From Squalus acanthias (Eukaryota), in NCBI GenBank assembly GCA_030390025.1, contig CM059432.1, positions 87,732,001-87,796,000 of the forward strand: 64,000 bases of DNA, in the 5' to 3' direction. Below are positions 6,165 through 45,781 of this stretch, one piece after another. Position numbers and translations under genes: made by a program. Positions within the stretch are counted from its first letter, which is position 1; every line of letters begins with the position of its first letter. The notes beneath the pieces are model-generated. The model ran no database searches, was not told where the DNA came from, and worked only from the letters and a program-made list of their open reading frames with translations.

Positions 6165-8140
6165 GGTTGGCCTGATTCACTTTAATGCTGCCTCACTCTA
6201 CTCGGCTCTCTTTTCCCCCTGGTACGGCTCTCATCTTCGCTCCCTTAAACCCAAGGGACGCAGACTCGAACGGATATGGCGGACAACTGGTTTAGCCATT
6301 CACCGCCAGATCTGGCTGGACCACATAAAGCACTATCGGGCCCTGCTCTCATCTGCCAAAATTGCTCACTATTCCAGAACCCCGGCTCCTATTCTCTATT
6401 GCTAACCGTCTTCTTAAACCCCTCTCCCCTGTCTCCTCCACCCTCACCTCTGATAACAAATGTGAGGAGCTCATGGACTTCTTTGTCTCGAAGATTGAGA
6501 CCATCCATTCAGCTGCCTCTGCCACTTCCACTGGGCCAAACTTCCTTTAGGGTTCCCCCCTGCCCTAGCCCTGAACTCACATCTTTCTCCAGTTTCTCTC
6601 CGATCTCCCCTCATGACATCTCTGCGCTCATCTTGTCCATGAGACCCACCTCCTGCTCCCTCGACCCTATTCTCACCAAACTGCTGACCACCCAATTTCC
6701 TTTTCTGGCTCCCATGTTAGCTGATATTGTTAACGGTTCTCTCTCCTCAGGTACTGTTCCCATCTCCCTCAAATCTGCCGTCATCACGCCTCTCCTCAAA
6801 AAACCAAACCTTGATCCCTCCGTCATGGCAAACTACCGCCCCATCTCCAACCTCCCTTTCCTCTCCAAAGTCCTTGAACGTGTTGTTGCCTCCCAAATCT
6901 GTGCCCATCTTTCCGCAATTCCGTGTTTGAATCCCTCCAATCAGGTTTCCGCCCTTGCCACAGTACCGAAAAAGCTCTCATCAAAGTCACAAATGACATC
7001 CTTTGTGACTGTGACAAAGGTAAACTATCCCTCCTCGTCCTTCTTGACTTGTCTGCAGCCTTTGACACAGTTGACTACTCCATCCTTCTCCAACGCCTCT
7101 CCACCGTCGTCCAGCTGGGTGGGACTGGACTCACTTGGTTCCATTCTTATCTTTCTAATCATAACCAGAGAATCACCTGCAACGGCTTCTCTTCCTGCAC
7201 CAGCATCGTTACCTCTGGTGTCCCCCAAGGATCTATCCTTGGCCCCCTCCTATTTCTCATCTACATGTTGCCCCTTGGCGACATCATCCGAAAACACAGC
7301 GTCAGTTGTTTTCGGTCCCCGCCACAAACTCCGTTCCCTAGCCAATGACTCCATCCCTCTCCCTAACATCTGTCTGGGGCTGAACCACACTGTTCGCAAC
7401 CTTGGTGTCATATTTGACCCTGAAATGAGCTTCCGACCACATATACGCAGAATAACAAAGACCACCTACTTCCACCTCTGTAACATCGCCCGTCTCCGCC
7501 CTTGCCTCAGCTCATCTGCTGCTGAAACCCTCATCCATGCCTTTGTTACCTCTAGACTTGACTATTCCAACGCACTCCTGGTTGGCCTTCCACATTCCAT
7601 CCTACGTAAACTTGAGGTCATCCAAAACTCGGCTACCCGTGCCCTAACTCGCACCAAGTCCCGTTCGCCCATCACCCCTGTGCTCGCTGACCTACATTGG
7701 CTCCCAGTTAAGCAGCGCCTCGATTTCAAAATTCTCATCCTTGTTTTCAAATCCCTCCATGGCCTTCACCCTTCCTATCTCTGTAATCTCCTTCAGCGCC
7801 ACAACCCCCCGAGATATCTGCGCTCCTCTAATTCTGCCCTCTTGAGGATCTCTGATTATAATCGCTCAACTTTTGGTGGCCGTGCCTTCTGTTGCCTGGG
7901 CCCTAAGCTGTGGAATTCCCTGCCTAAACCACTCCGCCTCGCTACCTCTCTTTCCTCCTTTAAGACGCTCCTTAAAACCTATCTCTTTGACCAAGCTTTT
8001 GGTCACCTGCCCTAATTTATCCTTATGTGGATCGGTGTCAAATTATTTTGTCTTAAAATACTCCTGTGAAGAGCCTTGGGACGTTTTACTACGTTAAAGG
8101 CGTTATATAAATACAAGTTGTTGTTGTTGTTGTTGTTGTT
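6165..8140 (+). mobile_element. L2 (LINE-2) element, 5'-truncated, frameshifted ORF2
   Basis: ORFs 6276-8015 and 6923-7348 give L2 motifs NYRPISNLPFLSKVLE, LLDLSAAFDTVD, GVPQGSILGPLLF, SRLDYSNALL, FKTLLKTYLF. 3' tail aggcgttatataaatacaag(TTG)n. Confidence 0.93.
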
Positions 8141-14100: not shown

Positions 14101-15034
14101 GGGGAGTTATGGCAGATTTTGCAAAACAGCAGCGTACCGATGCAGACACCTTGGGGTCAAAAATCTGTGGCCCTTCCGGCGCACTCTCGCCATTAGTCCG
14201 GCCGAGGGGCCAGATCGGATTGGAACCCAGAGCATTCACCTGATCCAAGCAAGGAAAGCAGTGTCATAGGGGGAATGGACAGAGAGGAGATTCACAGGCT
14301 AGGAGTTTCCTTGTCCCTGGCCTGGTGTAAAAGTAATGGGCCGATACACCAAGTGAGAGTAGGCTAATGGCTTACAGTCCAACAGAGTGGGGCCCACCTG
14401 GAGATATGGACCCGGCTTGTGGTCTGGACCCCTGCAGAAAATCGCTAGGATCTAGAACAGGCGGCTGATTGGCTGCCACTCTTTTTACACCGCCACTGAA
14501 GTTGAAAGCTCCATCCTGGAAACCTTAAGGGGGAAAAATTTGGTTGGTTTGCGCCTCCTGTTAGCGCCCTAATAATGGGGCACAAAGCAACTAGCGCCCG
14601 GGTGCGGCGATGTTTGCGCCGCTTGCGAAATTAACTAGAGTTTTTGTGGCAGCGCAAAAGTTTACCGCCCCGATCTCCTGCACCCGCAGATCGTGAAGTC
14701 AGTCGAGCGTGCAACGCCCTGGTGGCGCCCCGGACTGGATTTTGAGTGGCAGCCCCTTCCTTTCCACCTGGCGCAATCAACGACAGGGAGACTGGAACGT
14801 TTCCCAGTCGGTGAGGGGCTGGGGGGGGGGGGCGCTATTTAAAGGTGCCCTCTTCCTGGCTTTTTCTGTAGTAGGCATTTTTGCACCACATATTCTGACA
14901 GAGAGAGAGATTCTGAAAGAGAGATAGAGAGACTTCTGCATAGAGTCAACGCTGTGTGAAGTAGTTTTGGCTACTGAGCATCACTTTGCAGGTTCTTTTG
15001 GATTTGACCTTCATTACTTCGATTGCCAAAGACC

Positions 15035-16193
15035 GAGGGGGCTGCACTGATTTGGGGCGTCGTCCTGCGCCTGCCTAATCGGAGGCAACAGAGATGTAGA
15101 GAGAGAGTGGCAATCATGGCCAGACGGAGGAGGGCCAACAGGCCTCGGCACAGGAGACCTTACCCTCCCAGGGTATTCCGGGAATAATTCTCCTACATTA
15201 ATTTGTCTGAGGAGCAGTGTCTGCACAGGCTGCGATTCAGCAAGGAGGTGGTCACTGAGCTCTGCCACCTGCTGCAACCAGATCTGCAGCCTCAACTGAG
15301 GACCAGGACGTCTCTGTCGCTGGCAGTGAAGGTCACAGTGGCTCTGAATTTTTATGCCACCGGCTCCTTTCAAGCAGCTACTGGGGACATCGCCAATATC
15401 TCCCAGTTTGCGGTCCATTGCTGTATCCGTCAGGTCACAAATGCCCTCTATAAAAGGAGACACCAGTACATCTCTTTCCCCATGACCCTGGCCAAACAGC
15501 ATGAACGCGCATTGGGCTTCGCGAGGATAGCGGGCTTCCCCATGATGCAGCGCGCCATTGACTGCACGCATGTGGCATTGCGGGCACCGCATGAGAATGC
15601 AGAGGTCTTCCGAAACCGCAAGGGGTTCCACTCCTTAAACGTCCAGTTGGTCTGTGACCACAGACAGCTGATACTCGCTGTCAATGCCCGCTATCCTGAC
15701 AGCAGCCATGATGCTTTCATCCTGTGCCAGACTGGTGTGCCAGAACTTTTCCAGGCACCTGCATCAGCCAAGTGGTTGGCTCCTCGGGGACAAGGGTTAT
15801 CCACTCTGCACCTGGCTGATGACACCGCTCCGTAACCCCAACACCCCTGCTGAGCTGCGGTACAATGAGAGCCATATCGCCACCAGGAACATAATTGAGC
15901 AGACGATCGGCGTGCTCAAGAAACGGTTCTGCTGTCTGGACCACTTAGGAGGAGCCCTGCAGTACTCGCCCTGCGCGAGTCTCCCTCTTCATAGTTGTGT
16001 GCTGCATTCTTCATAACCTGGCAATCCTCAGGACCCAGCCAATGCCACCAGGCCTTGGAGCACCACCGGAGGAGGAGGAAGAGGAGGAGGTCGAGGAGGA
16101 GGATTATCAGCAGCAGCACCAAGGCTGGAGGGCGGCCCACAATGTTGAAACTGCAAGGGCTGTCCGTCAATGACTGATAACAAGCCGCTTCTA
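15035..16193 (+). pseudogene. Harbinger DDE transposase, frameshifted
   Basis: ORFs 15203-15835 (AIDCTH) and 15684-16016 ([20 protein letters not shown]) are in different frames. The ATG region is altered relative to copy 2. Confidence 0.92.
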
Positions 16194-16504
16194 GGCCCCT
16201 ACTGAGAAAATGGCTTCTGGCATGGAGAACAACATGATGAAAGCAACCCGCAACCCCAAAGCCGGCCAAGGCAGCAACGATTCCAAAGGGCAAACCTGTA
16301 CATTTTGAATACAAAAACTTTTTTATTTTACAAACTCTGTGTGTGTCATTTCTTCATGACAAACTAATAGAAACAAACACAAAAAATCATTCATTAACAT
16401 ATCTGGTTCTCACAACCTGGAGATAATGTTCAAAACACTAAACAAAAGTTTGAACACGAACCTCGGTCTTTAATAAAAAAATTCCCAACATTTCGTCACA
16501 CCTC

Positions 16505-18242
16505 CTACTTTTCGCCCTTCGAAGGTGATCTCCTTCCCTTGTGCACTTCCCCCCTTCCCACCCGACTGCTCCTCCGTAATGGGGCCCCAGTGGCTGCAGC
16601 AAGGCTGGTGGAAGGCTGCTGATTGTCAGAGCCTGAGACTACAGTTGCCCTTGAAGGACGCCCTCGACCAGCTCTGGGCCTGGAGAGCCCGGCTGCAGAC
16701 TGCACCAACTCTGCATGGGCGGCAGCAGTCTGGGCTACAGACGATGGCAAGTGCAATGGGGAAGTGAGAGTGGTGGCAGCAGGAATGCTGTCATCTTGAG
16801 AGAGGACAGCAACTCCCTGCTCGACCGACACATTAGCACTCCCACGGGGCAGCACCTCAGCATCCGGAGCAATCTGCTGGAGCACAGATTGCTGGCCTGC
16901 TATGGCGCGGTGAGAGCCCCGGGGAAATGTGTCCAATCCAGCGACAATGGCAGCAGTCAGTGCTCGCGTGGCCTCAATCTGAGTCTGCATGAGAGCAGTC
17001 TGAGATTGGATCACGGCAGCCAGTGACTGAATTGCAGCACTAAGCATTTGCGTGGCATCCACCTGTGCTACAGCGTAGTGCTCCACACTCCTTGCCAGTG
17101 CATCAATGCATTCGGGCACCCTTCCCACTGCACCCATGAGCTGAGTGTGTATGTCCACTGCCTGGGTGTTCATTTCAGTGATGAGCCGCTCCTCCTCTGC
17201 GTCCAGTGAAGTAGGACTCACTGGCCTACTCTCCCTCCGGGGAGAAGGCCCCCAAGCTTCCCTAGCCACATCGCGTTGCTGCAGCCTGCTGGGTCCCGGA
17301 GTTTCACCCTCATCAGACCCTTCCCCCCTGCTCCCCTCCAGGGAAGGCGTGTTCCCAGTGTGGGCATGGGCTTCCTCGGGAGAGGGTGGCGCTGAGGCTC
17401 CGGCTTCCTCCTCGCCTGCGACTTCACTCCCACTGCCAGCTTCAGGGCCCGTCTCCTCAGCTGGTGAATCACCATCTGAAAGCAGGGAGGTACAAGAGTG
17501 GCTTTAGCGTGAGGACAGGGGGGCAGTAAGGGAGGAAGGAGTGGAGCGAGTTAGTAAGTTGGATTGAAAGTGTAAAATGCTGGTGTTGTGAGGGACAAGT
17601 GGAATGAGAGAGGAGAGAAAGCTGATGACCTTACCATTGCTGTCCCGAACGGGGTCGACCTCTCCAGGGGCGACGGGGCCGATCACCTGGCTTGCCACAA
17701 TCCTGTGGACCCGCGCCTCAAGATCGCTGAGGGGCTGCAGCTGAGGCCACCCTCCACCCGTCCGTTGCTGCTGTTTCCTATTATGAAATAGCTTGGCCTG
17801 CAAGAAAAAGGACGGCGTCTGAGTAAATATACAGCCATGGTCTTGCCTGATGTGCCTCCCATAGTTGAATAGCCCTTACTGTATGCAAGGTGTGGAATGT
17901 GCGTGTGTGTTTCATGAGAGGGCCATAGGTATGGGATGAGTGTTGGGCATTGTGGTTTTAAGACCCTCTGGCCATAGATGGAGGTTGAAATGGAGGGATG
18001 GAGAGGTATTGAAAAAAAGCCACTCACCCTGACGACCCGAGTGAGGTCGTTGAACTTTTTGCGACATTGAGTATGGGTTCTGGGCACCAGGCTCCTGGAG
18101 AAGACCTGCTCAGCCACCTCCCTCCACACTCTTCTGTAGTTGCGCGGGAAGAGTATAGATCTTCTGCGCTCCACTGCGCCAACCAGAGCCCCTCCAAGAC
18201 CCGCTCGCTGGAGCACTGAGCTCGTTCTCTCACCCTCTCCAT
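16505..18242 (-). pseudogene. Harbinger Myb/SANT partner gene, 3 exons (18242-18028, 17797-17635, 17475-16505), exon 1 frameshifted and partly deleted
   Basis: Same GT-AG sites as copy 2. Exon 1 is split between ORFs 18024-18377 and 17683-18216 and lacks part of the ESGRRPLP segment. Confidence 0.85.
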
Positions 18243-18673
18243 AGTCCTTGTCTGGAAAATGTAGTCACAGGTCTCTCCAGGCCGAGATTCAAGGTTCCAA
18301 TGAGCAGGGTGTGGCTGGAGAGCAAGATCGACCCTCCCCTTTAAGAACTGTCCGGCACCATTGTGTTTGTGTTCCATTGCTAACTGACATCACCTGTGCT
18401 GCGCCTGCGCTCTGAGTTAGTGCCTCGCTCCTCGGCCTTTGCACCTTAAGACAGGTGTGCAGCGCCTGATTTAGCGCTCCAATCACCTCCAGGGGCGCTA
18501 AAAGCCAAGTTTGCAGTCAGAGGCGATAATTAGTGCCAGGCGCTAAACTTTGCGCCCGGCTGATTATTTGTGCCCAAACGGGGCGATGCTGAATTTCTCC
18601 CCCTAAGTTAATAAAAACAGAAAATGCTGGAAATACTCAGCAGGGCAGGCAGCATCTGTGGAGAGAGAAACAG

Positions 18674-20306: not shown

Positions 20307-22070
20307 TAGGGGCAGAGGTTATGGTCTGAAATTGTTGAACTCGATGTTGAGTCCAGAAGGCTGTAAAGTGCCTAATCAAAAGATGAGGTGCTGCCCCCCT
20401 AGCTTACGTTGAGCTTCATTGGAACAGTGTAAGAGGCCGAGGACGGAGAGGTCAGAGTGCAAGTGGAGCAGAGAATTAAAGTGACAGGCGACCAGAAGCT
20501 CGGGGTCACCCTTACGGACTGAACGGAGGTGTTCCGCAAAGCGGTCACCCAATCTGCGTTTGGTCTCCCCAATGTAGAGGAGACCGCATCGTGAACAGCG
20601 AATACAGTATATTAAATTGCAAGAAGTACAAGTAAATCGCTGTTTCAACTGGGAGGAGTGTTTGGGGCCCTGTACAGTGGGAAGGGAGGAGGTAAAAGGG
20701 CAGGTGTTGCATCTCCTGCGCTTGCACGGGAAGGTGCTGGGGGAAGGGGCCTTGAGTTAAGCTCTGGTTGATGAGATCTTCACTAAAATACTTGTTCTGC
20801 CTTGTCATGATCACGTAAGTCCAATTTACCGGATCCAAACATTAGCCATAATTGCCTTATGCCTCACATGAACTATCATGGATTCCAATCCATTCCTCTT
20901 GCATAAATCTCTTTTTGCCCCATCGTATGTGAACTCTCAGGATACAGTTGAAACAAAATCTGTCCATTTTATTCTTCCTAATGTGAGATGCACGTGTACT
21001 TAGTATGTTGTACCCTGGTGCTTTCCTCTGTGAAGGTTTATGACGTGTCTCCTGCTAGCTGAATTTGGAGAACATGCTCCTCATACGGAGACAATGGGTA
21101 ATAGTTGCGAAGGCTCCATCCAGGCCGCATTTATTCTCACCTGTGTTGCGTGTCCTTTTCTTGTGGGCAGGTGTAAAGTGCACTCATGTTGGAATTTGGA
21201 AGAGTAGAGACAGCATCACACAAGTGCCCAGCTGACATGATACCTAATGTGAGTTCATGAACATGCTGCATGCAGGTAGCTTGTACTGGCGGCTTGCTTG
21301 GTGATCCGAACTTGCAAGAGTTGCGTGCGATATTAGAGGCTATTTCTGTGTTAGTGACAAAGTGTGCTCTGGAATATGCATGTATCAAAAGGGCTGAATG
21401 GTTGACTGAAAGCTTTTCATTTTGCCCCTGTGAAGCAGTGCCAAGGTGAGAGTGAAATATTCTTGGCAGTTATTTTAAGACAATAAACTAAACGTAGGGA
21501 AAGTGTGAGAACTCTCACCTTGTCTGTCTTCATGAGTCTAGAAAATGTATTTTTCATCTGCTCACACGATCTATGGATGTGGGATACTGCAGCAACTTTC
21601 TTAACATTTCAAGCAGTACTCCTGCTTGGAGCACAGCCCTTAGCTCCAAACAGGGCAATCATCCTTTGCAGCATTTCCCAGTGTAAGACCTTCAGAGCAG
21701 CAACATCAACAGGAAAAATCCTCTTCCTAACCCTCCTTGCAAGCATCCTGAATTACTATCAGCCAGCGTTTAAATTTGTCAATGTGCTGCTCTGCTTGAA
21801 CTGCGAGCACCTTAGGAGCTGCTGACTTGCTGGATATCGACACTACACACTTAGTGCGCTCCCTGTGTACTAGCCAATCTGTGCAGGGAACTAACGCTAA
21901 TTGTTAAAATAAGCTGACCTCACAATATGATGCAAGGTTAGTTCCATAAACTCCCTGCAACAGAAGCGCAGAATTGTCTTTTGTAACTCCATTGTGGCTT
22001 GAATCCTGATTTTAAAAAGTATTCAGGGCCCTTGTGTCTCCTGGGAACTATTTTAAATTAAAATGGGGAT

Positions 22071-22264
22071 TGTCGTAAGAATGAGCCTTACGCGTGGTGA
22101 ACTTAAAGTAAGCTTTAATCAACTAAAAAGGTGCTACATACAAAAGAGGTCTTACTCTATGCCTCTCCAGGATCCAACTGCTCAGTCCAGTATTTATCCT
22201 GGACTAATCACAGGAAGTGATGCAATAAAGTTCGAGTCACAGGAAGCTGTATTGTGTTACCACA
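22071..22264 (-). repeat. 3' LTR of the Gypsy element
   Basis: Identical by eye to 26318-26511. Preceded on the minus strand by the PPT GGGGGGGGAGAA. Confidence 0.96.
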
Positions 22265-22282
22265 TTCTCCCCCCCCAAAAGA

Positions 22283-25200
22283 TTAGGAGGCCGGGATGCT
22301 CCCTCCATTTCGTAGCCGCCGGACGAGGGAGAGCCGCACCCGTTTGGGTTCTCGTAGCGGTAGAGGGCCCCTAGCCCGTTTACCCGCCGCGGGCCGTGGA
22401 CCAGAGTCCGAGTGATCCAGCCCGCTCTGTGAGGGGTCAGGACGATCCTGACTGTGTACTGGTGCCCGAACGGGTGTCGGGCAGGGCTGTGGCAGATCCG
22501 TTTCCGAGCGTATGGTACGGGGTGGATCGTGGCTGCGCGTGCGAGCCCCGACGGGCTCATAGTCAGTCTGCCCCAGGTCGGCACGCTGGAGTGAGGTACC
22601 AGCCGGCGTCAGATCCAGATCGTGATGAGAGGCACCTGGCGAGCCCAGAGATGTGCCTGGTACAATATCATACCCTGGTGTCCCTCTATGTTTCGGCGGG
22701 CAGGGAGCCAGATCCCGCAATGACACGGTAGATTCCCGACCGTCAGGATACCGAATATAGGCGTAGGTAGGGTTGACGTCAGTGAGCTCAACCTCATCTA
22801 CCAGGGGGTCATTCTTGGACGCCCGGACATATCTTCGGAGTAGCACTGGTCCCGGTGCAGTCAGCCACGACGGGAGAGATATCCCATAGGATGAGCGACG
22901 CTGAAATCGGAAGAACCGTTCATGAGGCGTCGTATTTGTGGCGGTCGAAAGGAGGGACCGTGTGGAGTGTAATGCGTCTGGAAGTACTGCTTCCCATTGC
23001 TGGTTGGGTAGGCCCCGAGATCTCAAAGCCAGACGTACCGCATTCCAGATGATAGCGTTAAAACGCTCGACTTGCCCATTCCCGACCGGATGATAAGGCG
23101 TCGTTCTGCTGGCAGCAATACCCCGTTCCGAGAGATAGGCCTTGAGTTCTCCTGACATAAAAGAAGGGCCCCGATCCGAATGAACATAGGATGCCATGCC
23201 ACAGAAAGCAAATACCTGCTCAAGGCAGCTGATAACCGTGGTCGTCAGCATATTGGGGCAGGGAAAGGCAAACGGAAAACGGGAATACTCATCGACCATG
23301 GTCAATAGATAAGTGTTGCGAGTTGAAGAGGGCAACGGCCCCTTAAAATCGATGCTAAGCCGTTGCATTGGCTGGGTCGCATGTATGAGTATACCACCCG
23401 AGGGGCGGAAAAACTGAGGTTTCAATTCCGCACAGACTCTGCAGTCCGAGCACATCTTCTTTACATCCCCGGTAGAGAATGGGAGATTTCGGGACCGCAC
23501 GAAGTGTAGCATGCGAGTAACGCCCGGATGACACAACCCATCATGGATGTCTACGAGCGTAGAGGGTGCCATGGCGGAGCAGAATGCTCGTGTGAGGGTA
23601 TCCGGAGCCACATTCTCCTTGCCAGGTCGATAGTGGATGGTGTAACCAAAAGAGGCCAATTCCAGCCGCCAAAGCTGGATTTTATTATTTTTAATTTTGG
23701 TCCGTTTTCGATTATCGAGCATGAAGGCGACCGATCGCTGGTCCGTGATTAAGGTAAAGTGCTGGCGAGCTAGGAGATGAGTCCACTTCCGTACTGCCTC
23801 TATGATGGCTGTAGCTTCTTTCTCGACTGGAGGATAATGTAGCTCAGCCCCTTGAAAAGTCCTGGACAAAAATGCCACCGGACGACCTTCCTGATTCAGA
23901 GTGGCCGAGATCGCCACCTCCGAGGCATCACTCTCAACAACAAAAGGAAGACTCTCATCGATGGAGTGAAGAGCTGCTTTCTCCAACTGTTTTTTCAGGA
24001 GGTTAAAGGCTGCAACAGCCGCTGTGTCTAGTGGGAATGTGCTGGCCTTCAGTAGAGGTTGGATTCGGTCCGAGAAGTTAGGAATCCATTTAGCATAGTA
24101 TGCAAACAGGCCGAGGGCCCGGCGCAAGGAGGCCGGATTCTTAGGTGGCGGGAGTTCTTGGAGTGGGCGAAGCCTTTCAGGGTCAGGTTTAATGATGCCA
24201 TTGCCCACACAATAGCCAAGGATGTTGATGGTTGGTTGTGACTCAATGGATTTAGCCGCATTTAATGTCAAATTACGGTGCTGGAGTGCATCCCAAAATC
24301 GTTGGAGATTGGCGTCATGTTCCCGCTGATTGCGACCTGCGACAGTAATATTGTCCAGATAAGGAAACGTATCCTTCAAGTCTTCCTGTTTGACCAGGTC
24401 ATCCATTGCTCGCTGGAAGACAGCCACTCCATTAGTGACCCCAAAGGGGAGGCGACGAAATTGATACAGCCGTCCATTGGCTTCAAAGGCCGTATACTGC
24501 TTGTCTGAGACCTTCAAGGGTACCTGATGATAGGCACTTTTCAGATCATATGTTGAGAACACCGTGTACTCAGCCAGTTTATTAACCATATCATCGATGC
24601 GCGGCAATGGGTATGCGTCCAAGTCCGTATATTGATTGATGGTCTGTGAATAGTCAATGCACAGCCGTTTCTTGTGAGGTTGTAGAGGGTTCTTAACAAT
24701 AACGACCTGGGCACGCCATGGCGACGAACAAGGCTCGATGATATCCTCTGCTAAAAGCCGAGAAATCTCAGCCGCAATAAAAGACTGGTCTTCCTGACTG
24801 AAACGTCGTGACTTTGTTATAATCGGTTTGCATCGAGGAGGGATACTGGTAAACAGTGAGGGTTCATCCAGTGAAGCTGCTGACAATGCACAGAACGGTA
24901 ATCGAGGTCGTATATTAGAAATAGTGAGTTCAGGTTTGGATCCGCCGAACTCAATGGTGAGCTTCTTATGCTGCTTTTGAAAATCCAGCCCTAAGATAAG
25001 ATCACTACATAAGTCCTTGAGCACCGAAAGCCGGGTGGAGGGATACCTGCGACCATTAAGTGTTATTTCAACCATACAAAAGCCAGAAATTCTGGTATTA
25101 AGTGATGACTGAGCCATCGCAATTGCCTGGTCCGATGGGAAAACATGTAGCTTTAACTCTGCAACAATCTGTTCCCTAATGAAACTATCAGTGCTACCTG

Positions 25201-26239
25201 AGTCAATTAAGGCATCTAAAGTATGTCCATTAATTGATGCTTTTGTAGCTGCATGGAATAGGTTCTGAGGACAAGCAGCTGTAATTGGTGTCGTTGCACA
25301 AAGAGTGGCTGAAACTCTAGGTGTGTTTCTTCGAGAGAAAACCCGAGAGGAAGCACGATAGATTTTAGCCGGAACATCTTGATAGGCCCTTACCGGGGCA
25401 GTTCGGTAGGACTTAGCTTGATAAGCCCTCGTAGAGGCTCTTGATAGGCAAACCTTTGCGAAATGACCCTTTTTGTTGCAATGACTGCAAAACGCATTGC
25501 GAGCAGGGCAGAATTTCCGAGGGTGAAACTCATCACCACAAAAGAAGCATTTCTTAGATTGCCAAGAGGCTGCCACAGTGGGGTCATCATCCTCTTCATC
25601 AGTGAAGTCATCAGATTGATCGTCAGGGATAAAGTCCTCCCTAATAGAGTTCACCTGTGGCCTCTTAAATTGCCTGACTGTAGTTAAGGCAGCAGACCGA
25701 GGTCTGGGCACTGTATAAAGGTCTGCATTTCTTTTTGCCAGATCTAGAGAGCAAGCCATGTCATAAGCTCTCTGAAGCTCAAGTGTCTTACTTTCCAGTA
25801 GACGCTGGCGTATAAATGGGGAGGCAAGCCCGCAGATGAAAGCATCACGGATCATTTCTTCACGGTACAGCTCAGCTGAGGCCGCCTGAAAGTTACAGTC
25901 CATACTGAGTCTGTGAAGCTCTTGGAGGAATTTATCAATGGATTCCTCCGGCCCTTGTTGGGCTGTAGCTAGTAGATGTCTGGCATAGACCTCATTCGGT
26001 GTCTTAGTATATAGTCTTTTAAGCGTCCGAATTGCCTCCTCGTAACTGCCCCATTCCTCAACATACTGAAATACATTCGGAGTGACACAGTTGATGAGTA
26101 TCCGCAACTTTGTGTCATCATCAGCCTTGCAATATTCGAGAAAATTGTCAAACGTGCGATACCAGTGTTTCCACACCTTACCGGCTGCTGGGGTGTTTGG
26201 GTCCAAGTCAAGACGCGATGGTTTAAGGATGTTTTCCAT
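22283..26239 (-). CDS. Gag-Pol polyprotein (gag zinc knuckles, protease, RT, RNase H, integrase), 1318 aa
   Basis: CFFCGDEFHPRKFC and CSHCNKKGHFAKVC knuckles; LIDSGS protease; RLCIDY, DLKSAYHQV, LPFGV, YLDN RT; SDASEV RNase H; HDGLCH..CSDCRVC plus IDFKGP/HSDRG/GQVERFN integrase, in Gypsy domain order. Confidence 0.96.
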   Translation of the reverse strand: MENILKPSRLDLDPNTPAAGKVWKHWYRTFDNFLEYCKADDDTKLRILINCVTPNVFQYVEEWGSYEEAIRTLKRLYTKTPNEVYARHLLATAQQGPEESIDKFLQELHRLSMDCNFQAASAELYREEMIRDAFICGLASPFIRQRLLESKTLELQRAYDMACSLDLAKRNADLYTVPRPRSAALTTVRQFKRPQVNSIREDFIPDDQSDDFTDEEDDDPTVAASWQSKKCFFCGDEFHPRKFCPARNAFCSHCNKKGHFAKVCLSRASTRAYQAKSYRTAPVRAYQDVPAKIYRASSRVFSRRNTPRVSATLCATTPITAACPQNLFHAATKASINGHTLDALIDSGSTDSFIREQIVAELKLHVFPSDQAIAMAQSSLNTRISGFCMVEITLNGRRYPSTRLSVLKDLCSDLILGLDFQKQHKKLTIEFGGSKPELTISNIRPRLPFCALSAASLDEPSLFTSIPPRCKPIITKSRRFSQEDQSFIAAEISRLLAEDIIEPCSSPWRAQVVIVKNPLQPHKKRLCIDYSQTINQYTDLDAYPLPRIDDMVNKLAEYTVFSTYDLKSAYHQVPLKVSDKQYTAFEANGRLYQFRRLPFGVTNGVAVFQRAMDDLVKQEDLKDTFPYLDNITVAGRNQREHDANLQRFWDALQHRNLTLNAAKSIESQPTINILGYCVGNGIIKPDPERLRPLQELPPPKNPASLRRALGLFAYYAKWIPNFSDRIQPLLKASTFPLDTAAVAAFNLLKKQLEKAALHSIDESLPFVVESDASEVAISATLNQEGRPVAFLSRTFQGAELHYPPVEKEATAIIEAVRKWTHLLARQHFTLITDQRSVAFMLDNRKRTKIKNNKIQLWRLELASFGYTIHYRPGKENVAPDTLTRAFCSAMAPSTLVDIHDGLCHPGVTRMLHFVRSRNLPFSTGDVKKMCSDCRVCAELKPQFFRPSGGILIHATQPMQRLSIDFKGPLPSSTRNTYLLTMVDEYSRFPFAFPCPNMLTTTVISCLEQVFAFCGMASYVHSDRGPSFMSGELKAYLSERGIAASRTTPYHPVGNGQVERFNAIIWNAVRLALRSRGLPNQQWEAVLPDALHSTRSLLSTATNTTPHERFFRFQRRSSYGISLPSWLTAPGPVLLRRYVRASKNDPLVDEVELTDVNPTYAYIRYPDGRESTVSLRDLAPCPPKHRGTPGYDIVPGTSLGSPGASHHDLDLTPAGTSLQRADLGQTDYEPVGARTRSHDPPRTIRSETDLPQPCPTPVRAPVHSQDRPDPSQSGLDHSDSGPRPAAGKRARGPLPLREPKRVRLSLVRRLRNGGSIPAS

Positions 26240-26305
26240 GATGGGTGATTCCCTGGATCCTTAGTTCCGAGTTCGTCCAAAAAGTTTGAGTGCGAAGTTT
26301 TTCAA

Positions 26306-26316
26306 AGTTGATTAAA
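26306..26316 (-). promoter_or_regulatory. Putative self-priming primer-binding site
   Basis: Minus-strand TTTAATCAACT lies 1 nt after the 5' LTR and is the exact complement of LTR-internal AGTTGATTAAA (26371-26361). There is no TGG tRNA-type PBS. Confidence 0.8.
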
Positions 26317-26317
26317 T

Positions 26318-26511
26318 TGTCGTAAGAATGAGCCTTACGCGTGGTGAACTTAAAGTAAGCTTTAATCAACTAAAAAGGTGCTACATACAAAAGAGGTCTT
26401 ACTCTATGCCTCTCCAGGATCCAACTGCTCAGTCCAGTATTTATCCTGGACTAATCACAGGAAGTGATGCAATAAAGTTCGAGTCACAGGAAGCTGTATT
26501 GTGTTACCACA
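26318..26511 (-). repeat. 5' LTR of the Gypsy element
   Basis: Identical by eye to 22071-22264. Confidence 0.96.
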
Positions 26512-26796
26512 GGGATTCCCGCCTATAATCTCAAAATGTTTAAGATTTAATTGATGGGAGTGAATTTCTGAGCATGAGCTTTCTTTATGCAATCAGAATT
26601 TGATTCAAAGTCAGGCAGTTTAAATAAGATACAACGGGCGCGTTTGGGGGCGGTAACCGAGTTAAGGCCAGACATTTAACTCGCGGTGCAGAAGTACCGC
26701 CCCGGCCGCTAAATTCGGCTTATCGCCCCGCACAGGAAGTGGAGTGCAATGTCAGGTGCTCCACTTCCTGGTGGGGCAGTAACCGTGGCGATGTTA

Positions 26797-37677: not shown

Positions 37678-38579
37678 ATGGCAGGAGAGCTCCGCCCCGT
37701 GATATGCTCCTCCTGCTATATGTGGGAAATCAGGGACACTTCCTGTGTCCCTGACGACCATTTGTGTGGGAAGTGTATCCAGCTGCAGCTACTGATAGAC
37801 CGCATTGCGGCTCTGGAGCTGCAGATGGATGCATATTGGAGCATTCGCAGGTAAAGGGTGTACAGGCAGGAAGTGAATGGGTGACCACCAGGCAGAGTAA
37901 GGGGTGCAGGCAGGTAGTGCAAGGGTCCCCTGTGGCCATCCCCCTCTCAAACAGATATACCACTTTGGATACTGTTGGGGGGGATGACTTATCAGGGGAA
38001 GGCAGCAGCAGCCAACTTCCTGGCACCATGGGTGGCTCTGCTGCACAGGCTGGGAGGAAAAAGTGTGGAAGAGCTATAGTGATAGGGGACTCAATTGTAA
38101 GGGGAATAGATAGGCGTTTCTGCGGCCACAAACGAGACTCCAGGATGGTGTGTTGCCTCCCTGGTGCAAGGGTCAAGGATGTCTCGGAGCGGCTACAGAA
38201 CATTTTGGAGGGGGAGGGCGAACAGCCAGTTGTCATGGTGCACATAGGCACCAACGATACAGGTAAAAAATGGGATAAGGTCCTAAAAGCAGAATATCGG
38301 GAGTTAGGAGGTAAATTAAAAAATAGGACCTCAAAGGTAGTAATCTCAGGATTGCTACCAGTGCCACGTGCTAGTCAGAGTAGAAATAGGAGGCTATTTC
38401 AAATGAATACGTGGCTAGAGGAATGGTGCAAGGGGGAGGGATTCAAATTCCTTGGACATTGGAACCGGTTCTGGGGGAGGTGGGACCAGTACAAACGGGA
38501 CGGTCTGCACCTGGGCAGGGCCGGGACCGATGTCCTAGGGGGAGTGTTTGCTAGTGCTGTTGGGGAGGGTTTAAACTAA
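37678..38579 (+). pseudogene. CR1 ORF1 (Zn finger/leucine zipper + SGNH esterase), internal deletion/frameshift at ~37850
   Basis: MAGELRPVICSSC...CGKCIQLQLL, then IGDSIVR, PGA, HIGTND and DGLHL esterase blocks. Confidence 0.88.
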
Positions 38580-39073
38580 AGTGGCAGGGGGTTGGAACCT
38601 GAGCAGGGAGACAGAGGAAAGGGAAACAAGGATAAAAGCAAAAGACAGGAAGGAGAAAAACAAAAGTAGAAGGCAAAGAACTCAACGGTTTAAATCAAAC
38701 ATGGTTACAGTAAATAATAATTCATATAGGTCTGAGAGCATTAAAAAAACAAACCTGAAGGCTTTGGGGGAAAAATTCAGTTGGTTGCGCCTCCCGTTAG
38801 CGCCTTAAGAGGGCGCTAATGGGGCGCAAAGCCACTAGCGCCCGGGCGCAGCGATGTTTGCGCCGCTCGGGAACTTAACTAGACATTGTGCGGCGGCGCT
38901 AAACTTTACCGCCGCGACCACCTGCGCGCGCAGATTGTGACGTCATTCCATGGTGCAACGCCCTTGTGGCGCCCCGGAGCGGAAATTGAGTGGCGCCCCC
39001 TGCCTTACCGCCTGGCGCATCCAACGACCGGAAGACTGGAACGCTATCAATCGCTGTGGGGCTGGGGGGGGGC

Positions 39074-39083
39074 GCTATTTAAA
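39074..39083 (+). promoter_or_regulatory. Candidate TATA-like element upstream of the Harbinger transposase
   Basis: gctatttaaag lies ~200 bp upstream of the ATG. A similar motif precedes the transposases at ~14835, ~50470 (minus) and ~63727. Confidence 0.45.
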
Positions 39084-39277
39084 GGGGGCCTCTTCCTGTC
39101 TTTTTCTGTGGTTGACATTTTTGCACCACTCGTTCTGAGAGAGAGAGAGAGATTCGGAGAGAGAGAAAGAGAGACTTCTGCATTGAGTCAACGCTGTGTG
39201 AGGTAGTTTTGCCTACTGATCCTAACTTCGCTGCTACTTTGGTTGCTGTCCTTCATAACTTTGCTTGCAAAGAGACT

Positions 39278-40438
39278 ATGGGGGCTGCACTGATTGGGGG
39301 CGTCGTCCTGCTCCAGCTGAATCGGAGGACACAGAGACGCAGAGAGAGAGTGGCAATGATGGCCAGACGGAGGAGGGCCAACAGGCGTATGTACAGGAGA
39401 GCTTACCCTCCCAGGGTATATCGTGAACAGCTCTCCTACATTCATATGTCTGAGGAGCTGTGTTTGCGAAGGCTGCGATTCAGCAAGGAGGTGGTCACTG
39501 AGCTCTGCCACCTGCTGCAGCCAGATCTGCAGCCTCAACTGAGGTCCAGGACGTCTCTGTCGGTGGCAGTGAAGGTCACAGTGGCTCTCAACTTCTATGC
39601 TACTGGCTCATTTCAAGCTGCTGCTGGGGACCTCGCCAATATCTCCCAGTTCGCGGTGCATTGCTGCATCCAGCAGGTCACAAATGCCCTCTTTAAAAGG
39701 AGACGAGAGTTCATCTCTTTCCCCATGACCCCAGACAAGCAGCGTGACCGCGCTCTGGGCTTTGCGAGGATAGCGGGCTTCCCCATGGTGCAGGGCGCCA
39801 TTGACTGCACGCATGTGGCTTTGCGTGCTCCACATGAGAATGCCGAGGAATTCCAGAACAGAAAGGGGTTCCATTCCTTGAATGTTCAGTTGGTCTGTGA
39901 CCACAGACAGCTGATACTAGCTGTCAATGCCCACTATCCTGGCAGCTGCCACGATGCTTTCATCCTGCGCCAGACTACTGTGGCAGAACTTTTCGAGGCA
40001 CCGCATCAGCCAGTTGGTTGGCTTCTCGGGGACAAGGGGTATCCATTGAGCACCTGGCTGATGACACCGCTCCGTACGCCCAACACCCCTGCTGAGCTGC
40101 GGTACAACGAGAGCCATCAAGCTACCAGGAACATAATTGAGCGCACAATCGGCGTGCTGAAGCAACGGTTCCGCTGTCTCGACCATTCTGGAGGAGCCCT
40201 GCAGTACTCGCCTGAGCGAGTATCCAACTTCGTAGTTGTGTGCTGCATGTTGCATAACATGGCAATCGTCAGGACCCAGCCAATGCCACCAGGCCTTGGA
40301 GCACCACCAGAGGAGGAGGAGGAAGAGGAGGAAGAGGACGAGGAGGATGATCATCAGCAGCACCAAGGCAGGAGGGCGGCCCACAGTGGTGAAACTGCAA
40401 GGGCCGTCCGTCAACGGCTGATAGCAAGCCGCTTCTAG
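39278..40438 (+). CDS. Harbinger DDE transposase (HARBI1-like), 386 aa
   Basis: Uninterrupted ORF from ATG 39278 with catalytic motifs GAIDCTH, LLGDKGY and IIERTIGVLKQRF, plus an acidic C-terminal tract. Confidence 0.94.
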   Translation: MGAALIGGVVLLQLNRRTQRRRERVAMMARRRRANRRMYRRAYPPRVYREQLSYIHMSEELCLRRLRFSKEVVTELCHLLQPDLQPQLRSRTSLSVAVKVTVALNFYATGSFQAAAGDLANISQFAVHCCIQQVTNALFKRRREFISFPMTPDKQRDRALGFARIAGFPMVQGAIDCTHVALRAPHENAEEFQNRKGFHSLNVQLVCDHRQLILAVNAHYPGSCHDAFILRQTTVAELFEAPHQPVGWLLGDKGYPLSTWLMTPLRTPNTPAELRYNESHQATRNIIERTIGVLKQRFRCLDHSGGALQYSPERVSNFVVVCCMLHNMAIVRTQPMPPGLGAPPEEEEEEEEEDEEDDHQQHQGRRAAHSGETARAVRQRLIASRF

Positions 40439-40750
40439 GGCCCCTGCTGTGGAAATGGCTTCTGCCATTGCTAACAACATCAATGAACCCAGCACGCAAC
40501 CCCTAAGCCGGCCAAGGCACCAATGATTCCAAACACCAAACATGTATATTTTGAATACAAAAACTTATTTATTTTACAAACTCTGTGTGTGTCATTTCCT
40601 CATGACAAACTCATAGAAATAAACACAAAAAAACAGTCATTAACATAACTGGTTCTCACAACCTGGAGATAATGTCCAAAACACTAGACAAAAGTTGGAC
40701 CACGAACCTCGGCCTTTAATAAAAAAATGACCAGCATTTTGTCACACCTC

Positions 40751-42624
40751 CTACTTTTTGCCCTTCGAGGGTGATCTCCTTCCCTTGCGCACTTCCCCCC
40801 TTCTAACCCTACTGCTCCTCCGTAATGGGACCTCAGTGGCTGCAGCAAGGCTGGTGGAAGGCTGCTGATCGTCAGACCCTGACACTGCAGATGCCCCTGA
40901 AGGACGGCCTCGACCACTTCTGGGCCTGGAGGGCCCGGCTGCAGACTGCACCAACTCTGCATGGGCGGCAGCAGTCTGTCCTACAGGCGGTGGCAAGTGC
41001 AGTGGAGAAGTGACAGTGTTGGCAGCAGGAATGCTGTCATCGTGAGAGAGGACAGCAACACCCTGCTCGCCCGACACACTGGCACTCCCACGGGGCAGCA
41101 CTTCAGCATCCGGAGCAATCTGCTGGAGCACAGATTGCTGGCCTGCTGCGGCGCGGTGAGAGCCCCGGGGACATGTGAACGAACCATCGAGGTTGGCAGC
41201 AGTCAGTGCTCGCGTGGCCTCAATCTGAGTCTGCATGAGAGCAGTCAGAGATGGGATCACGGCAGTCAGTGACTGAATTGCAGCACTAAGCGTTAGTGTG
41301 GCATCCGCCTGTGCTACAGCGAAGTGCTCCACACTCCTTGCCAGTGACTCAATGCATTCGGGCACCCTTCCCACTGCACCCATGAGCTCAGTGTGCATGC
41401 CCACCGCCTGGGTGTTCATTTCTGCGATCAGCCGCTCCTCCTCTGCGTCCATTGCAGTAGGAGTCGCTGGCATACTCTCCCTCTGGGGAGAAGGCCCCCG
41501 TTCTTCCCTACCCCCATGGCGTTGCTGCAGCCCGCTGGGTCCTGGAGCTTCACCCTCATCAGACCCTTCCCCCCTGCTCCCCTCCAGGGAAGGCGTGTTC
41601 CCAGTGTCGGCATGGGCTTCCTCGGGAGAGGGTGGCACTGATGCTCCGGCTTCCTCTTCCTCCTCGGCTGCAGCTTCACTCCCACTGGCAGCTTCAGGGC
41701 CCGTCTCCTCAGCTGGTGAATCACCATCTGAAAACAGGGAGGTACAAGAGTGGCTTTAGCGTGAGGACAGGGTGGCAGTAAGGGAGGAATAAGTGCAGCG
41801 AGTTAGCAAGTTGGATTGAAAGTGTCAAAGGCTGGTGTTGTGAGGGACAAGTGGAAGGACAGAGGACAAAAAGGTGATGACCTTACCATTGCTGTCCAGA
41901 ACGGGGTCGGCGTCTCCAGTGGCGACGGGACCGATCACCCGGCTTGCCACAATCCTGTGGACGCGCTCCTCAAGATCGCTGAGGGGTTGCAGCTGAGGCC
42001 GCCCTCCACCTGTCCGTTGCTGCTGTCTCCTATTATGCGCCAGCTTGGCCTGCAAGTAAAAGGACAGCATCTGAGTAAATATACAGCCATGGTCTTGCCT
42101 GATGTGCCTCCCATAGGTGAATAGCCCTTACTGTATGCAGCCATGGTCTTGCCTGATGTGCCTCCCATAGGTGAATAGCCCTTACTGTATGCAGCCATGG
42201 TCTTGCCTGATGTGCCTCCCATAGGTGAATAGCCCTTACTGTATGCAAAGTGTGGAATGTGTGTGTGTGTTTCATGAAAGGGCCATAGGTGTTGGATGAG
42301 TGTTGTGCATTGGGGTTTTAAGACCCTCTGCCCATAGAGTGAGGTTGAGATGGAGGGATGGAGAGGTATTGAGAAAAAGCCACTCACCCTGACGACCCGA
42401 GTGAGGTCGTTGAACTTTTTGCCGCATTGAACATGGGTCCTGGGCACCATGCTCCTGGAGGAGACGCTCTGAGCCACCTCCCTCCACACTCTTCTGTACT
42501 CGCGTGGCAAAGGCCTCCTGCCACTCTCAGGGAAGAGTATACATCTTCTGCGCTCCACCGCACCAACCAGAGCATCCAAGGCCCGCTCGGTGAAGCGCTG
42601 AGCTCGTTCTCTCACCCTCTCCAT
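40751..42624 (-). CDS. Harbinger Myb/SANT (trihelix) partner protein, 3 exons: 42624-42388, 42049-41887, 41727-40751; 458 aa
   Basis: Exon 1 RAQRFTERALDALV...WREVAQSV...RTHVQCGKKFNDL. Canonical splice sites AGG|GTGAGT, TTGCAG|, G|GTAAG and TTTCAG|. 237+163+977 = 1377 nt, in frame with no internal stop. Exon 2 has RTGGG. Confidence 0.85.
42084..42245. repeat. 3 x 54-bp tandem repeat in intron 1 of the partner gene
   Basis: Unit cagccatggtcttgcctgatgtgcctcccataggtgaatagcccttactgtatg at 42084, 42138 and 42192. Copy 1 has a single unit (~17832). Confidence 0.95.
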
Positions 42625-42983
42625 CCTTGGCAGCAAAATGGATTCACAGGTCTCTCCAGGCCGAGATTCAAGGCTGCAATGAGCAGGGTGTGGCTGGGGA
42701 GCAAGTTGGCCCCCCCGCTTTAAGAACTGGCCGGCGCCAGTGTGTCTGTGTTCCCTCGCTAACTGGCAGCACCTGCGCTGCGCTCGCGCGCTGAGTTAGC
42801 GCCTCACTGCTCGGCCTTTGCGCCTTAAGACAGCTGTGCAGCGCCTGATTTAGCGCTCCACTCACCTCCCGGGGCGGTAAAAGTGAAGTTTCCAGTCAGT
42901 GGCGATAATTAGCGCCAGGCGCTAATTTTTGCGTCCAGACGATATTTGCGCCCCAAACGGGGCGCGACCTAATTTTTCCCCCT

Positions 42984-45781
42984 TTGTGTCTTAATGCAAG
43001 GAGCATTCGGAACAAGGTGGATGAATTAGCTGCGCAAATAGAGGTAAATGAATACGATTTGATTGGGATTACAGAAACATGGCTCCAGGGTGGCCAAGGC
43101 TGGGAACTCAACATCCAGGGGTATTCAATATTTAGGAAAGATAGGCAAAAAAGAAAGGGAGGTGGAGTAGCATTGCTGGTTAAAGAGGGGATTAACACAA
43201 TTGAAAGGAAGGATAGTAACTCTGATGATGTGGAATCTGTATGGGTAGAACTGAAAAATAACAAGGGGCAGAAAACGTTAGTGGGAGTGGTATATAGACC
43301 TCCAAACAGTAATACAGAGGTTGCGGACGGCATTAAAAGGGAAATTAGAGAAGCATGCAGTAAGGGCACAGCAGTCATCATGGGTGACTTTAATTTACAT
43401 ATAGATTGGGCTAACCAAATTAGTAAAAATACTGTGGAGGAGGAATTCCTAGAATGTTTACGGGATGGTTTTCTGGAACAATATGTCGAGGAACCAACCA
43501 GAGATCAGGCCATCTTAGACTGGGTATTATGTAACGAGAAAGGATTAATTAGCAATCTTGTTGTACGAGGCCCCTTGGGTCAGAGTGATCATAATATGAT
43601 AGAATTCTTCATTAGGATGGAGAGTGAAGTAGTTGAATCAGTGACTCGGGTCCTGAATTTAAATAAAGGAAACTACGATGGTATGAGACGCGAATTGGGT
43701 AGGATTGATTGGGGAATGTCACTCAAAGGGTTGACGGTGGATAGGCAATGGCAAACATTCAAAGACTGCATGGATGAACTACAGAATTTGTTCATCCCAG
43801 TGTGGCATAAGAATAAAACAAAAAGGGTGACTCAACCATGGCTAATAAGGGAAATTAGGGATAGCATAAGATCCAAGGAGAGGGCATATAAATTGGCCAG
43901 AAAAAGCGTTAACCCTGAGGATTGGGAGCAGTTTAGGATTCAACAAAGGAGGACAAAGGGATTAATTAAGAAGAGGAAAATAGAATATGAAAGTAAGCTT
44001 GTTGGGAACATAAAATCTGACTGTAAGAGCTTTTATAGATATGTGAAGAGAAAAAGATTAGTGAAATCAAGTGTAGGTCCCTTGCAGTCAGAAGCGGGGG
44101 AAGTTATAATGGGGAACAAAGAAATGGCAGACCAATTAAATACATACTTTGGTTCTGTCTTCACAAAGGAGGACACAAATAACCTCCCAGAGATGTTGGA
44201 GAACATACAGTCTGATGAAAGGGAGGAACTGAAAGAAATCAGTATTTGCAGGAAAATGGTGTTAGGAAAATTGATGGGATTGAAGGCCGATAAATCCCTA
44301 GGGCCTGATAATCTACATCCTAGGGTACTTAAGGAAGTGGCCCTAGAAATAGTAGATGCATTGCTGATCATCTTCCAACATTTGATGGAATCTGGAACTG
44401 TACCCATGGATTGGAGGGTAGCTAATGTTACCCCACTATTCAAAAAGGGTGGTAAAGAGAAAACGGGGAATTACAGACCGGTAAGCCTGACATCGGTAGT
44501 GGGGAAAATGCTAGAGTCCATTATAAAGGATGTAATAGCTGAGCACTTGAAAAACAGTGACAGGATCAGACAAAGTCAACATGGATTTACAAAAGGTAAA
44601 TCGTGCTTGACTAATCTACTGGAATTTTTGAGGATGTAACTGGGAAAATAGATAAGGGAGAACCAGTAGATGTGGTGTATTTGGACTTTCAAAAGGCTTT
44701 CGATAAGGTCCCGCATAAGAGATTAGTGTGTAAAGTTAAGGCACATGGGATTGGGGGCAAGGTATTGACTTGGATAGAGAACTGGTTGGCGGACAGAAAG
44801 CAGAGAGTAGGAATTAATGGGTCTTTTTCCGAGTGGCAGGCAGTGACTAGTGGGGTACCGCAGGGATCGGTCCTTGGACCCCAGCTATTCACAATATACA
44901 TTAATGATCTAGATAAGGGAACTAAATGTAATATCTCCAAGTTTGTAGATGACACAAAGCTGGGTGGGCGTGTATGCTGCGAGGAGGATACCGAGAAACT
45001 CCAGGATGATTTGGACAGGTTGGGTGAGTGGGTAGAAGCGTGGCAGATGCGATATAATGTGGATAAATGCGAGGTTATCCACTTTGGTGTCAAAAACAGA
45101 AAGGCAGACTATTATCTGAATGGCAATAGATTGGGAGAAGGGGAAGTGCAACGAGACCTGGGTGTCCTTGTGCACCAGTCGCTGAAGGTAAGCATGCAGG
45201 TGCAGCAGGCGGTGAAGAAGGCAAATGGTATGTTGGCCTTCATAGCGAGAGGGTTTGAGTATAGGAACAGGGATGTCCTGCTGCAGTTGTACAGGGCCTT
45301 GGTGAGACCACACCTTGAGTACTGTGTGCAGTTTTGGTCGCCTTATCTGAGGAAGGATGTTCTTGCCATGGAAGGAGTTCAGCGAAGATTCACAAGGCTG
45401 ATACCTGGGATGGCAGGAATGATGTATGAAGAGAGATTGGGTCGATTGGGCTTATACTCGCTGGAGTATAGAAGAATGAGAGGGGAGCTCATCGAAACAT
45501 ATAAAATTCTGACAGGTCTGGACAAACTAGATGCAGGAAGAATGTTCCCGATGGTCGGAGAGTCCAGAACCAGGGGTCATAATCTAAGGATAAGGGGTAA
45601 GCCATTTAGGACAGAAATGAGGAAGAATTTCTTCACCCAGAGAGTGGTGAACCTGTAGAATTCTCTACCACAGAAGGTAGTTGAGGCCAAGCCATTAAAT
45701 ATATTCAAGAATGAGTTAGATATATTTCTTAAAGCTAAAAGTATCAAGGGATATGGGGAGAAGGCAGGTGCAGGGTACTGA
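42984..45781 (+). pseudogene. CR1 ORF2 (APE endonuclease + RT), frameshift at ~44630 and stop at 45656
   Basis: NARSIRNK, ITETWL, YRPP, GDFN and SDH APE motifs; RT motifs in ORF 44672-45658. Confidence 0.92.

Follow-up and report, generated by a model that had tools for sequence, protein, structure and literature searches.

A complete Ty3/gypsy element of 4,441 bp with one gag-pol open reading frame (ORF) was identified on the minus strand (26511-22071) of the window, that is, the whole 64,000-nt stretch of DNA that was analysed, to which all positions refer; the host genome is 3.7 Gb. Its place among the Ty3/gypsy LTR retrotransposons is based on the LTRs, the target site duplication (TSD), the polypurine tract and the order protease, reverse transcriptase (RT), RNase H, integrase. 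The LTRs are 194 bp each, identical, of the form TG...CA, and flanked by the 5-bp TSD ATCCC. The features of the element, in the direction of its transcription, are as follows.

26512..26516, minus strand: TSD ATCCC, 5' side
26318..26511, minus strand: 5' LTR, 194 bp, TG...CA, identical to the 3' LTR
26436..26445, minus strand: TATA-like box GATAAATACT, whose last 9 nt are the only 9-mer in common with the U3 of family L104 (suggestive only)
26361..26371, minus strand: LTR arm AGTTGATTAAA, a putative self-primer, complementary to the primer-binding position
26361..26366, minus strand: ATTAAA, by its sequence a likely poly(A) signal, with which the arm ends at its 3' side
26348..26360, minus strand: short hairpin stacked directly 3' of the arm in the predicted fold, with a putative cut at 26361/26360
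26321..26339, minus strand: CGTAAG/CTTACG hairpin near the LTR end in the predicted fold
26317..26317, minus strand: spacer base A between LTR end and primer-binding position
26306..26316, minus strand: primer-binding position TTTAATCAACT, without TGG
22283..26239, minus strand: gag-pol ORF, ATG at 26239, 1,318 aa, comprising gag (two knuckles), protease, RT (YLDN), RNase H and integrase
22265..22276, minus strand: polypurine tract, 8 G followed by AGAA, abutting the 3' LTR
22071..22264, minus strand: 3' LTR, 194 bp
22066..22070, minus strand: TSD ATCCC, 3' side

Pfam searches identified protease, RT, RNase H and integrase in the gypsy order, and gave no match at E values up to 0.1 to a chromodomain (PF00385), a Tf2-1 SH3 domain (PF24626) or env. 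The gag of the element contains two CCHC-type knuckles. The original prediction of an intact element with a double-knuckle gag and no visible chromodomain is therefore confirmed by the LTRs, the TSD, the ORF and the Pfam results. Among 50 aligned proteins none had a GPY/F motif, and the acidic residues of RNase H were invariant. The catalytic motif of the RT is YLDN and not YxDD (24350-24361, minus strand; residues 634-637 of protein P0001), and of 120 relatives examined, 95 gave a match to the motif, 87 of these with the DN form. A literature search for a YLDN RT motif returned nothing relevant. In Ty1 an Asp-to-Asn change of the RT blocks transposition; the family to which this element belongs is plainly active, so here transposition proceeds with an RT that carries the Asp-to-Asn change naturally. 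A 7-bp inverted repeat flanks the TATA-like box (26430-26452, minus strand).

Other mobile elements were also present. Two PIF/Harbinger-type DNA transposon copies, about 90% alike, lie at 14573-18544 and 38817-42923, their DDE_Tnp_4 transposase and Myb/SANT protein being encoded on opposite strands. LINE copies at 37758-38576, 51011-51961, 57496-61160 and 42912-45655, with a GDSL-type esterase ORF1 and an endonuclease-RT ORF2, are presumably CR1-like. A stop-free frame of 588 aa on the plus strand (6249-8015) is strongly C-skewed, gave no Pfam match and is probably a low-complexity repeat. Several of the 20 stretches L123-L142 of this genome were endogenous retrovirus-like (YVDDL/YVDDI RT, another long frame after pol), most with broken frames. 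A search of this genome for chromovirus references yielded no element fit for use, and its Tf2-1 SH3 matches were retrovirus-like.

Directly after the CA of the 5' LTR, the minus strand reads A (26317) and then TTTAATCAACT (26316-26306), which is the exact complement of AGTTGATTAAA (26371-26361) within the LTR. TGG is absent from the 10 nt next to the LTR end, so that the configuration first described for this element, an exact 11-nt complement in place of a tRNA site, was confirmed in the sequence. The pairing covers 11 nt and the next two positions are unpaired; for this element it does stop at the A at 26371, as had been stated. Among 100,000 shuffled LTRs, an 11-nt match at offsets 0-5 arose in 34. 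Fold z-scores ranged from -2.7 to -4.2 in three short windows and reached -1.5 in a 141-nt window. The CGTAAG/CTTACG hairpin that had been pointed out in the enclosed loop is indeed part of the predicted fold, but the stability of the loop by itself is at chance level (33 of 200 shuffles folded as well), and neither conservation nor significance was found for the hairpin. In contigs of two runs the LTR occurs in a variant form with an additional base at the arm's 5' edge (26370-26371), which would extend the pairing to 12 nt.

A protein search produced 1,396 relatives among 8,000 candidates, those with named hosts coming from prawn, copepod, tunicate, sea anemone, mussel, nematode and catshark. 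The DNA context of relatives was drawn from 7 MAG loci, 66 metagenome loci and 20 stretches of this genome. The 94 loci examined were L001 and L030-L122, the near-copies L002-L029 being left out; 41 were dropped (38 without a gag start, three ending too near the gag start), and the 53 testable loci were grouped into 23 families at 80% DNA identity, each represented by its best copy. The lineage members in bacterial MAG contigs (L030-L036) are evidently binned host DNA. IMG/VR contained no relative with the profile of the lineage, and one Mag-type locus with a mixed profile. At L071:9510-12404 and L041:1-2877 (minus strand), Gmr1-type gypsy elements, with the integrase before the RT, adjoin lineage members.

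Watson-Crick pairing at position +1 after the LTR end was found in 20 of the 23 families with at least 10 of 11 pairs, and in 16 with all 11. The same search of shuffled DNA gave 10 pairs in 5 of 920 trials and 11 in none, and intact copies chose +1 when the offset was left free. The three failing families were L053 (6/11) and L054 (8/11), in neither of which an LTR was recognised upstream, and L074 (9/11). Other copies with mismatches were L040, L045 and L066 with 10/11 (L066 with one G-U) and L092, L119 and L120 with 9/11. The 20 pairing families carry 16 distinct 11-mers. Over positions 1-13 of these families, 249 of 260 cells were Watson-Crick and none was G-U, the choice of arms by their Watson-Crick count being biased against G-U; with partners permuted (10,000 trials) at most 207 of the 260 cells were paired, and with the register slid by 1-3 nt only 47-104. 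Perfect pairing over 13 nt was obtained for 14 of 20 own combinations and for none of 380 cross-family ones. Both sides had changed in 45 compensated cells, located at 11 of the 13 positions; these are counts of cells, not of independent events. In L041, which is 98.4-98.9% identical to L047 and L045 and 97.8% identical to L095, one arm base is changed in both LTRs and the partner base is changed to match. Another matched change was observed between L044 and L046 (84% identical), and the pairing is kept across families that are 45-70% identical in protein. Compensatory changes of LTR and primer-binding position across related families, by which the prediction could be judged, were thus found, and on this comparative evidence the pairing is a real and conserved feature of the lineage.

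None of the 20 families has a TGG within 10 nt of the LTR. The spacer base after the LTR is A in 17 families, T in two and G in one. In L041 and L097 the ATG is preceded by a leader of only 16 nt, which leaves no room for another primer site. Seven Mag-type loci with a TGG site served as a control and gave only 6-8 of 11 pairs with their own LTR. The paired length in the lineage is 11-18 nt, usually 13-14, and the loop measures 23-65 nt. An A(A/T)TAAA hexamer is located within the arm in 14 of 20 families; the four bases following the arm are GCCT or ACCT in 13, and a hairpin directly after the arm was predicted in 11, with 3.3 expected. At L096:1245-1524 an LTR of about 83 bp was observed, the arm of which lacks a poly(A) hexamer and forms 10 of 11 pairs with the primer site.

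The family of the element is young and amplifying, and must therefore prime somehow. All 29 copies scored in a DNA search (29 of 1,907 candidates were scored) were near-identical and full-length. A TSD was found for 26 of these 29 and was 5 bp long in each of the 26. Both pairing arms were alike in 29 of 29 copies, which makes them uninformative on covariation. Copies of this family at L112-L117 have open frames of up to 1,510 aa while being 97-99% identical to P0001, from which it follows that the frame is lengthened in some copies by in-frame insertion or duplication. The same genome holds another young and abundant family (L103-L111, L113, L118-L122), which has a 215-bp LTR, a 1,315-aa frame, about 69% protein identity to the family of the element and a 13-nt pairing. 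An older relative, also of this genome, has LTRs of 218-229 bp. When the genome was searched with diverged proteins, the only additional relatives belonged to two groups, L103-type and L104-type, and the 80% threshold unites these in a single family.

Trees of the RT-RNase H region were constructed with FastTree (63 rows) and IQ-TREE (40 rows, 23 having been thinned out), the references being K02A2.6-like proteins, which we take to be Mag-type, and algal and plant chromoviruses rather than Mag, SURL, Tf1 or sushi themselves. In both trees the lineage formed its own clade with full support (100), apart from the Mag-type and the chromodomain-bearing (99) sets; with respect to these references, RT phylogeny upholds the suggestion of a separate lineage. 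Identity to the element over RT-RNase H was 38-82% within the lineage (thinned set), 27-35% for Mag-type and 28-32% for chromovirus-type sequences. Nesting with the core Mag-type set was rejected (p-AU 0.03). For the broad Mag-type group, a sister relation had an SH-aLRT of 93 in one tree, and a sister relation to the chromoviruses was not rejected (p-AU 0.30). Because a loose sister relation to either group is compatible with these values, an independent origin of self-priming is likely rather than certain. The Mag/SURL-like label given to the element in the original prediction is matched by the two-knuckle gag only; the RT-RNase H identities, the TGG sites of Mag-type elements and the rejection of core nesting are against it, and as regards pol it is wrong.

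The names Saci2, Cigr2, Gmr1 and Mag were considered for the lineage and set aside. The Saci2/lennie clade has a 4-bp TSD and tRNA primer sites according to the accessible part of PMC12471100, as opposed to the 5-bp TSD found here (26/26). Motif searches for Cigr in the supplements of four papers gave no match, no entry for Tf1, sushi, Mag, SURL or Cigr was among the best 50 matches listed in a fold search against viral structures, and a look-alike search of protein clusters returned only generic gag and pol clusters.

Based on these observations, the element is considered to use part of its own RNA as the primer of minus-strand DNA synthesis, with a probability of roughly 0.75. Self-priming in a lineage distinct from the chromoviruses, as had been proposed, is supported by the covariation in 20 of 23 families and by the tree. 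In the proposed mechanism, the LTR-derived arm of 11-18 nt pairs with the position 1 nt after the 5' LTR, and cleavage of the RNA would take place where the arm ends on its 3' side, behind TAAA and before the conserved RCCT or the hairpin, either of which may mark the cut site. The cutting enzyme would probably be the element's own RNase H, by analogy with Tf1. The new 3'-OH would prime copying of the 23-65 nt loop, the R part of which would serve strand transfer, and in plus-strand synthesis the primer would probably be copied into a new primer-binding site; such copying would probably account both for the strict Watson-Crick pairing and for the matched changes between near-identical copies. 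ATTAAA in the arm, which we take to be a common poly(A) signal, would be covered by the duplex in the 5' LTR only, and early 3'-end formation may be blocked there as a by-product. Extra paired bases could be supplied either by the 3' LTR copy or by a 5' fragment of greater length. In Ty3 the two active sites of RT are about 13 bp apart and the primer site is not perpetuated, according to the available portion of PMC5371799; that the usual paired length of 13-14 nt resembles this spacing is speculation by analogy.

A wider interpretation is offered tentatively, at odds clearly below even. It holds that self-priming arose in a large clade of animal Gypsy elements separately from Tf1/sushi and in a different form, the primer being 11-18 nt from within the repeat region rather than the capped initial 11 nt, that one duplex both hides the 5' poly(A) signal and, after cleavage, primes, and that the primer rewrites the site in each cycle; the primer would here end on the poly(A) signal and stem from a longer 5' fragment or the 3' LTR copy.

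Transcription had been predicted to start at 26371, with the first 11 nt of the RNA acting as the primer. This part of the original prediction was not supported, as the pairing passes the A in most families, the likely poly(A) signal ATTAAA falls within the paired arm and a TATA-like box is present upstream. Were the A the first base of the RNA in the whole lineage, the pairing would be expected to end at it. At positions 12-14, 44 of 60 cells were paired (G-C pairs included), compared with 25 expected and a maximum of 38 in 10,000 permutations, from which it follows that the paired strand reaches beyond the AG on its upstream side in the majority of families. Unbroken pairing runs reach 16-18 nt, the 18 nt being those of L051, and 14 of 16 runs of at least 11 nt end on a pyrimidine, which is an unusual first base for a polymerase II transcript. 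In favour of a start at 26371, AGT or AGC is found 11 nt from the end of the arm in 14 of 20 families, as expected of an initiator. The TATA-like box is 74 nt upstream in the element of the window and 90-92 nt upstream in L103 and L104, and its use would place +1 near 26414, which is suggestive only. Sharing of a 9-mer between two U3 regions was seen in 543 of 10,000 shuffles (5.4%), and among the remaining families a similar box was identified only in L091; a global alignment of five LTRs put the boxes in different columns, so that the argument depends on the shared 9-mer. Of 16 sequencing runs listed, four were compared with the element: the sole RNA run with raw reads gave 0 reads, and three others consisted of contigs, possibly of DNA, that are unable to show starts or ends. 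Within the probability assigned to self-priming, a start a few to about 45 nt upstream of 26371, with the arm internal to a longer 5' fragment, has a little less than an even chance; a start at 26371 as in Tf1 is unlikely, and supply of the arm by the 3' LTR copy is distinctly improbable.

The pairing could alternatively serve only to hide the poly(A) signal of the 5' LTR, or to regulate RNA processing or packaging, priming being left to another, unseen primer. In HIV-1 the 5' poly(A) signal is masked by a hairpin, and part of the observed pairing would be predicted by masking as well. In 14 of 20 families A(A/T)TAAA forms the end of the arm, the partner strand is present only after the 5' LTR, and the upstream TATA-like box would place the signal inside the RNA 5' end. 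However, masking requires neither a fixed +1 register nor an absence of G-U pairs. Four families (L039, L043, L044 and L096) pair without a canonical hexamer in arm or partner, L033, L043, L068 and L046 have a canonical hexamer unpaired in the loop, and the 16-nt leaders hold no other primer site. For these three reasons masking fails as the sole function, and priming by an unseen primer is regarded as quite unlikely, although masking may be a real by-product of the duplex.

Self-priming was also weighed against priming by a host tRNA, half-tRNA or other small RNA, to which the LTR match would be secondary. With G-U pairs permitted, the arm may bear a loose resemblance to a tRNA D-loop. Half-tRNAs act as primers in copia-type elements (available part of PMC6317226). 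In the present lineage TGG is absent from all 20 families, the 16 different 11-mers, a variety that a tRNA fragment could not follow, each match their own LTR (14 of 20 own against 0 of 380 cross-family combinations perfect), and a matched change separates copies that are 98-99% identical. A tRNA search that covered the window and 60 further loci found no tRNA gene, and Rfam gave no family at the primer site beyond one match at chance level. Such a primer is accordingly given very little weight. Slightly less still is given to an inverted repeat that acts on the DNA level, through integrase or the processing of cDNA ends, or that is a functionless copied relic. The repeat does abut the U5 end, where integrase acts, but the partner lies outside the LTR and after one LTR only, the pairing, which families with 45-70% protein identity have retained, disappears on a slide of 1 nt, and an active family would be left without any primer.

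Tf1 provides the demonstrated case of self-primed reverse transcription, the inferred cases being mainly among the chromoviruses related to it, and a widespread animal clade of non-chromoviruses with the logic of Tf1 bears on how often priming without tRNA arose and on whether it is ancestral. If these elements prime themselves, they would have no competition for tRNA and would escape silencing by 3' tRNA fragments directed at the primer site; it would also explain why tRNA-based annotation finds no primer site in them. The family is young and abundant, compensated variants occur naturally and the exact base of the predicted cut is known (26361/26360), which makes the mechanism accessible to direct tests.

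Among known systems, the Mag lineage (Mag, SURL/C-clade) resembles the element in its single ORF, short LTRs, two-knuckle gag and lack of chromodomain and env. It differs in the RT motif (YLDD, against YLDN in the element), and Mag-type elements, both those of this genome and that in L163, have a TGG primer site and no self-pairing.

The original description of Cigr-1 from Ciona intestinalis ("Gypsy-Cigr") reportedly gives an ORF of about 1,200 aa, LTRs of about 200-250 bp and a 5-bp TSD. As far as PMC2774666 is available, Cigr-1 shares with the element two CCHC motifs, ILG, an integrase located after RNase H, the loss of GPY/F and the absence of chromodomain and env. Six of the seven Cigr-1 markers given there are matched, the exception being protease pattern 3, which is TANG (TANG/GANG) in Cigr-1 and MA-x-S in examples of the lineage. 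The Cigr-1 clade has been reported from molluscs and annelids (accessible parts of PMC6238403 and PMC8556966), and relatives in the present analysis came from a tunicate, a mussel, a sea anemone, crustaceans and a nematode. From the fit of architecture and these reports, the lineage, about whose cataloguing the original prediction had been undecided, is probably the Cigr-1 clade and hence already catalogued as a clade, by a match of description and not of sequence. No description of a Cigr-1 primer site was found in the accessible text of the literature searched. The openly available texts searched, which excluded subscription journals, Repbase reports and GyDB, held no report of self-priming in a non-chromovirus animal Gypsy clade, and the accessible parts of PMC3601003, PMC3670739, PMC12471100 and PMC3587641 do not cover it.

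Elements without a primer site have been noted, unexplained, in the portions available of PMC5006619 and PMC6934838. Self-priming has been described for Tf1, Tf2 and Tj1, the Tf1/sushi group, Tcn1 and the plant TAR copia elements (PMC7175516, PMC4600332, PMC6317226 and PMC2864245, each as far as accessible). For TAR (Houba/Osr-1) and Tcn1 it was predicted from complementarity of at least 10 nt located 0-5 nt past the 5' LTR (PMC6317226, accessible part), and the TAR prediction means that self-priming outside Tf1/sushi has been proposed before. TAR is a plant group of another superfamily and Tcn1 a chromovirus, whereas the present element is an animal Gypsy element that is not a chromovirus.

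The closest functional parallel is provided by Tf1 and Tf2 of Schizosaccharomyces pombe, Tj1 of S. japonicus and Tf1/sushi, which have the same Ty3/gypsy domain order. In the Tf1/sushi group, as in this element, the primer-binding position complements the element's own LTR (11 nt in Tf1) and a tRNA site is lacking (PMC7175516, PMC4600332 and PMC6317226, as far as available). The partner of the primer site in Tf1 is formed by the initial 11 bases, and RNase H cleaves between base 11 and base 12 (PMC7175516, available part). The lineage differs from Tf1 in a pairing of 11-18 nt that usually passes the putative initiator A, a hexamer in the arm and a loop of 23-65 nt, and the exact geometry of Tf1 is doubtful for it. 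In contrast to Tf1/sushi, the element has a two-knuckle gag and is without chromodomain, GPY/F and a Tf2-1 SH3 match, and the RT of its lineage falls outside the chromodomain-bearing clade as sampled (a sample without Tf1, Tf2 and sushi). Judged from its sequence, the element thus probably works like Tf1, yet it is not a member of the Tf1/sushi group.
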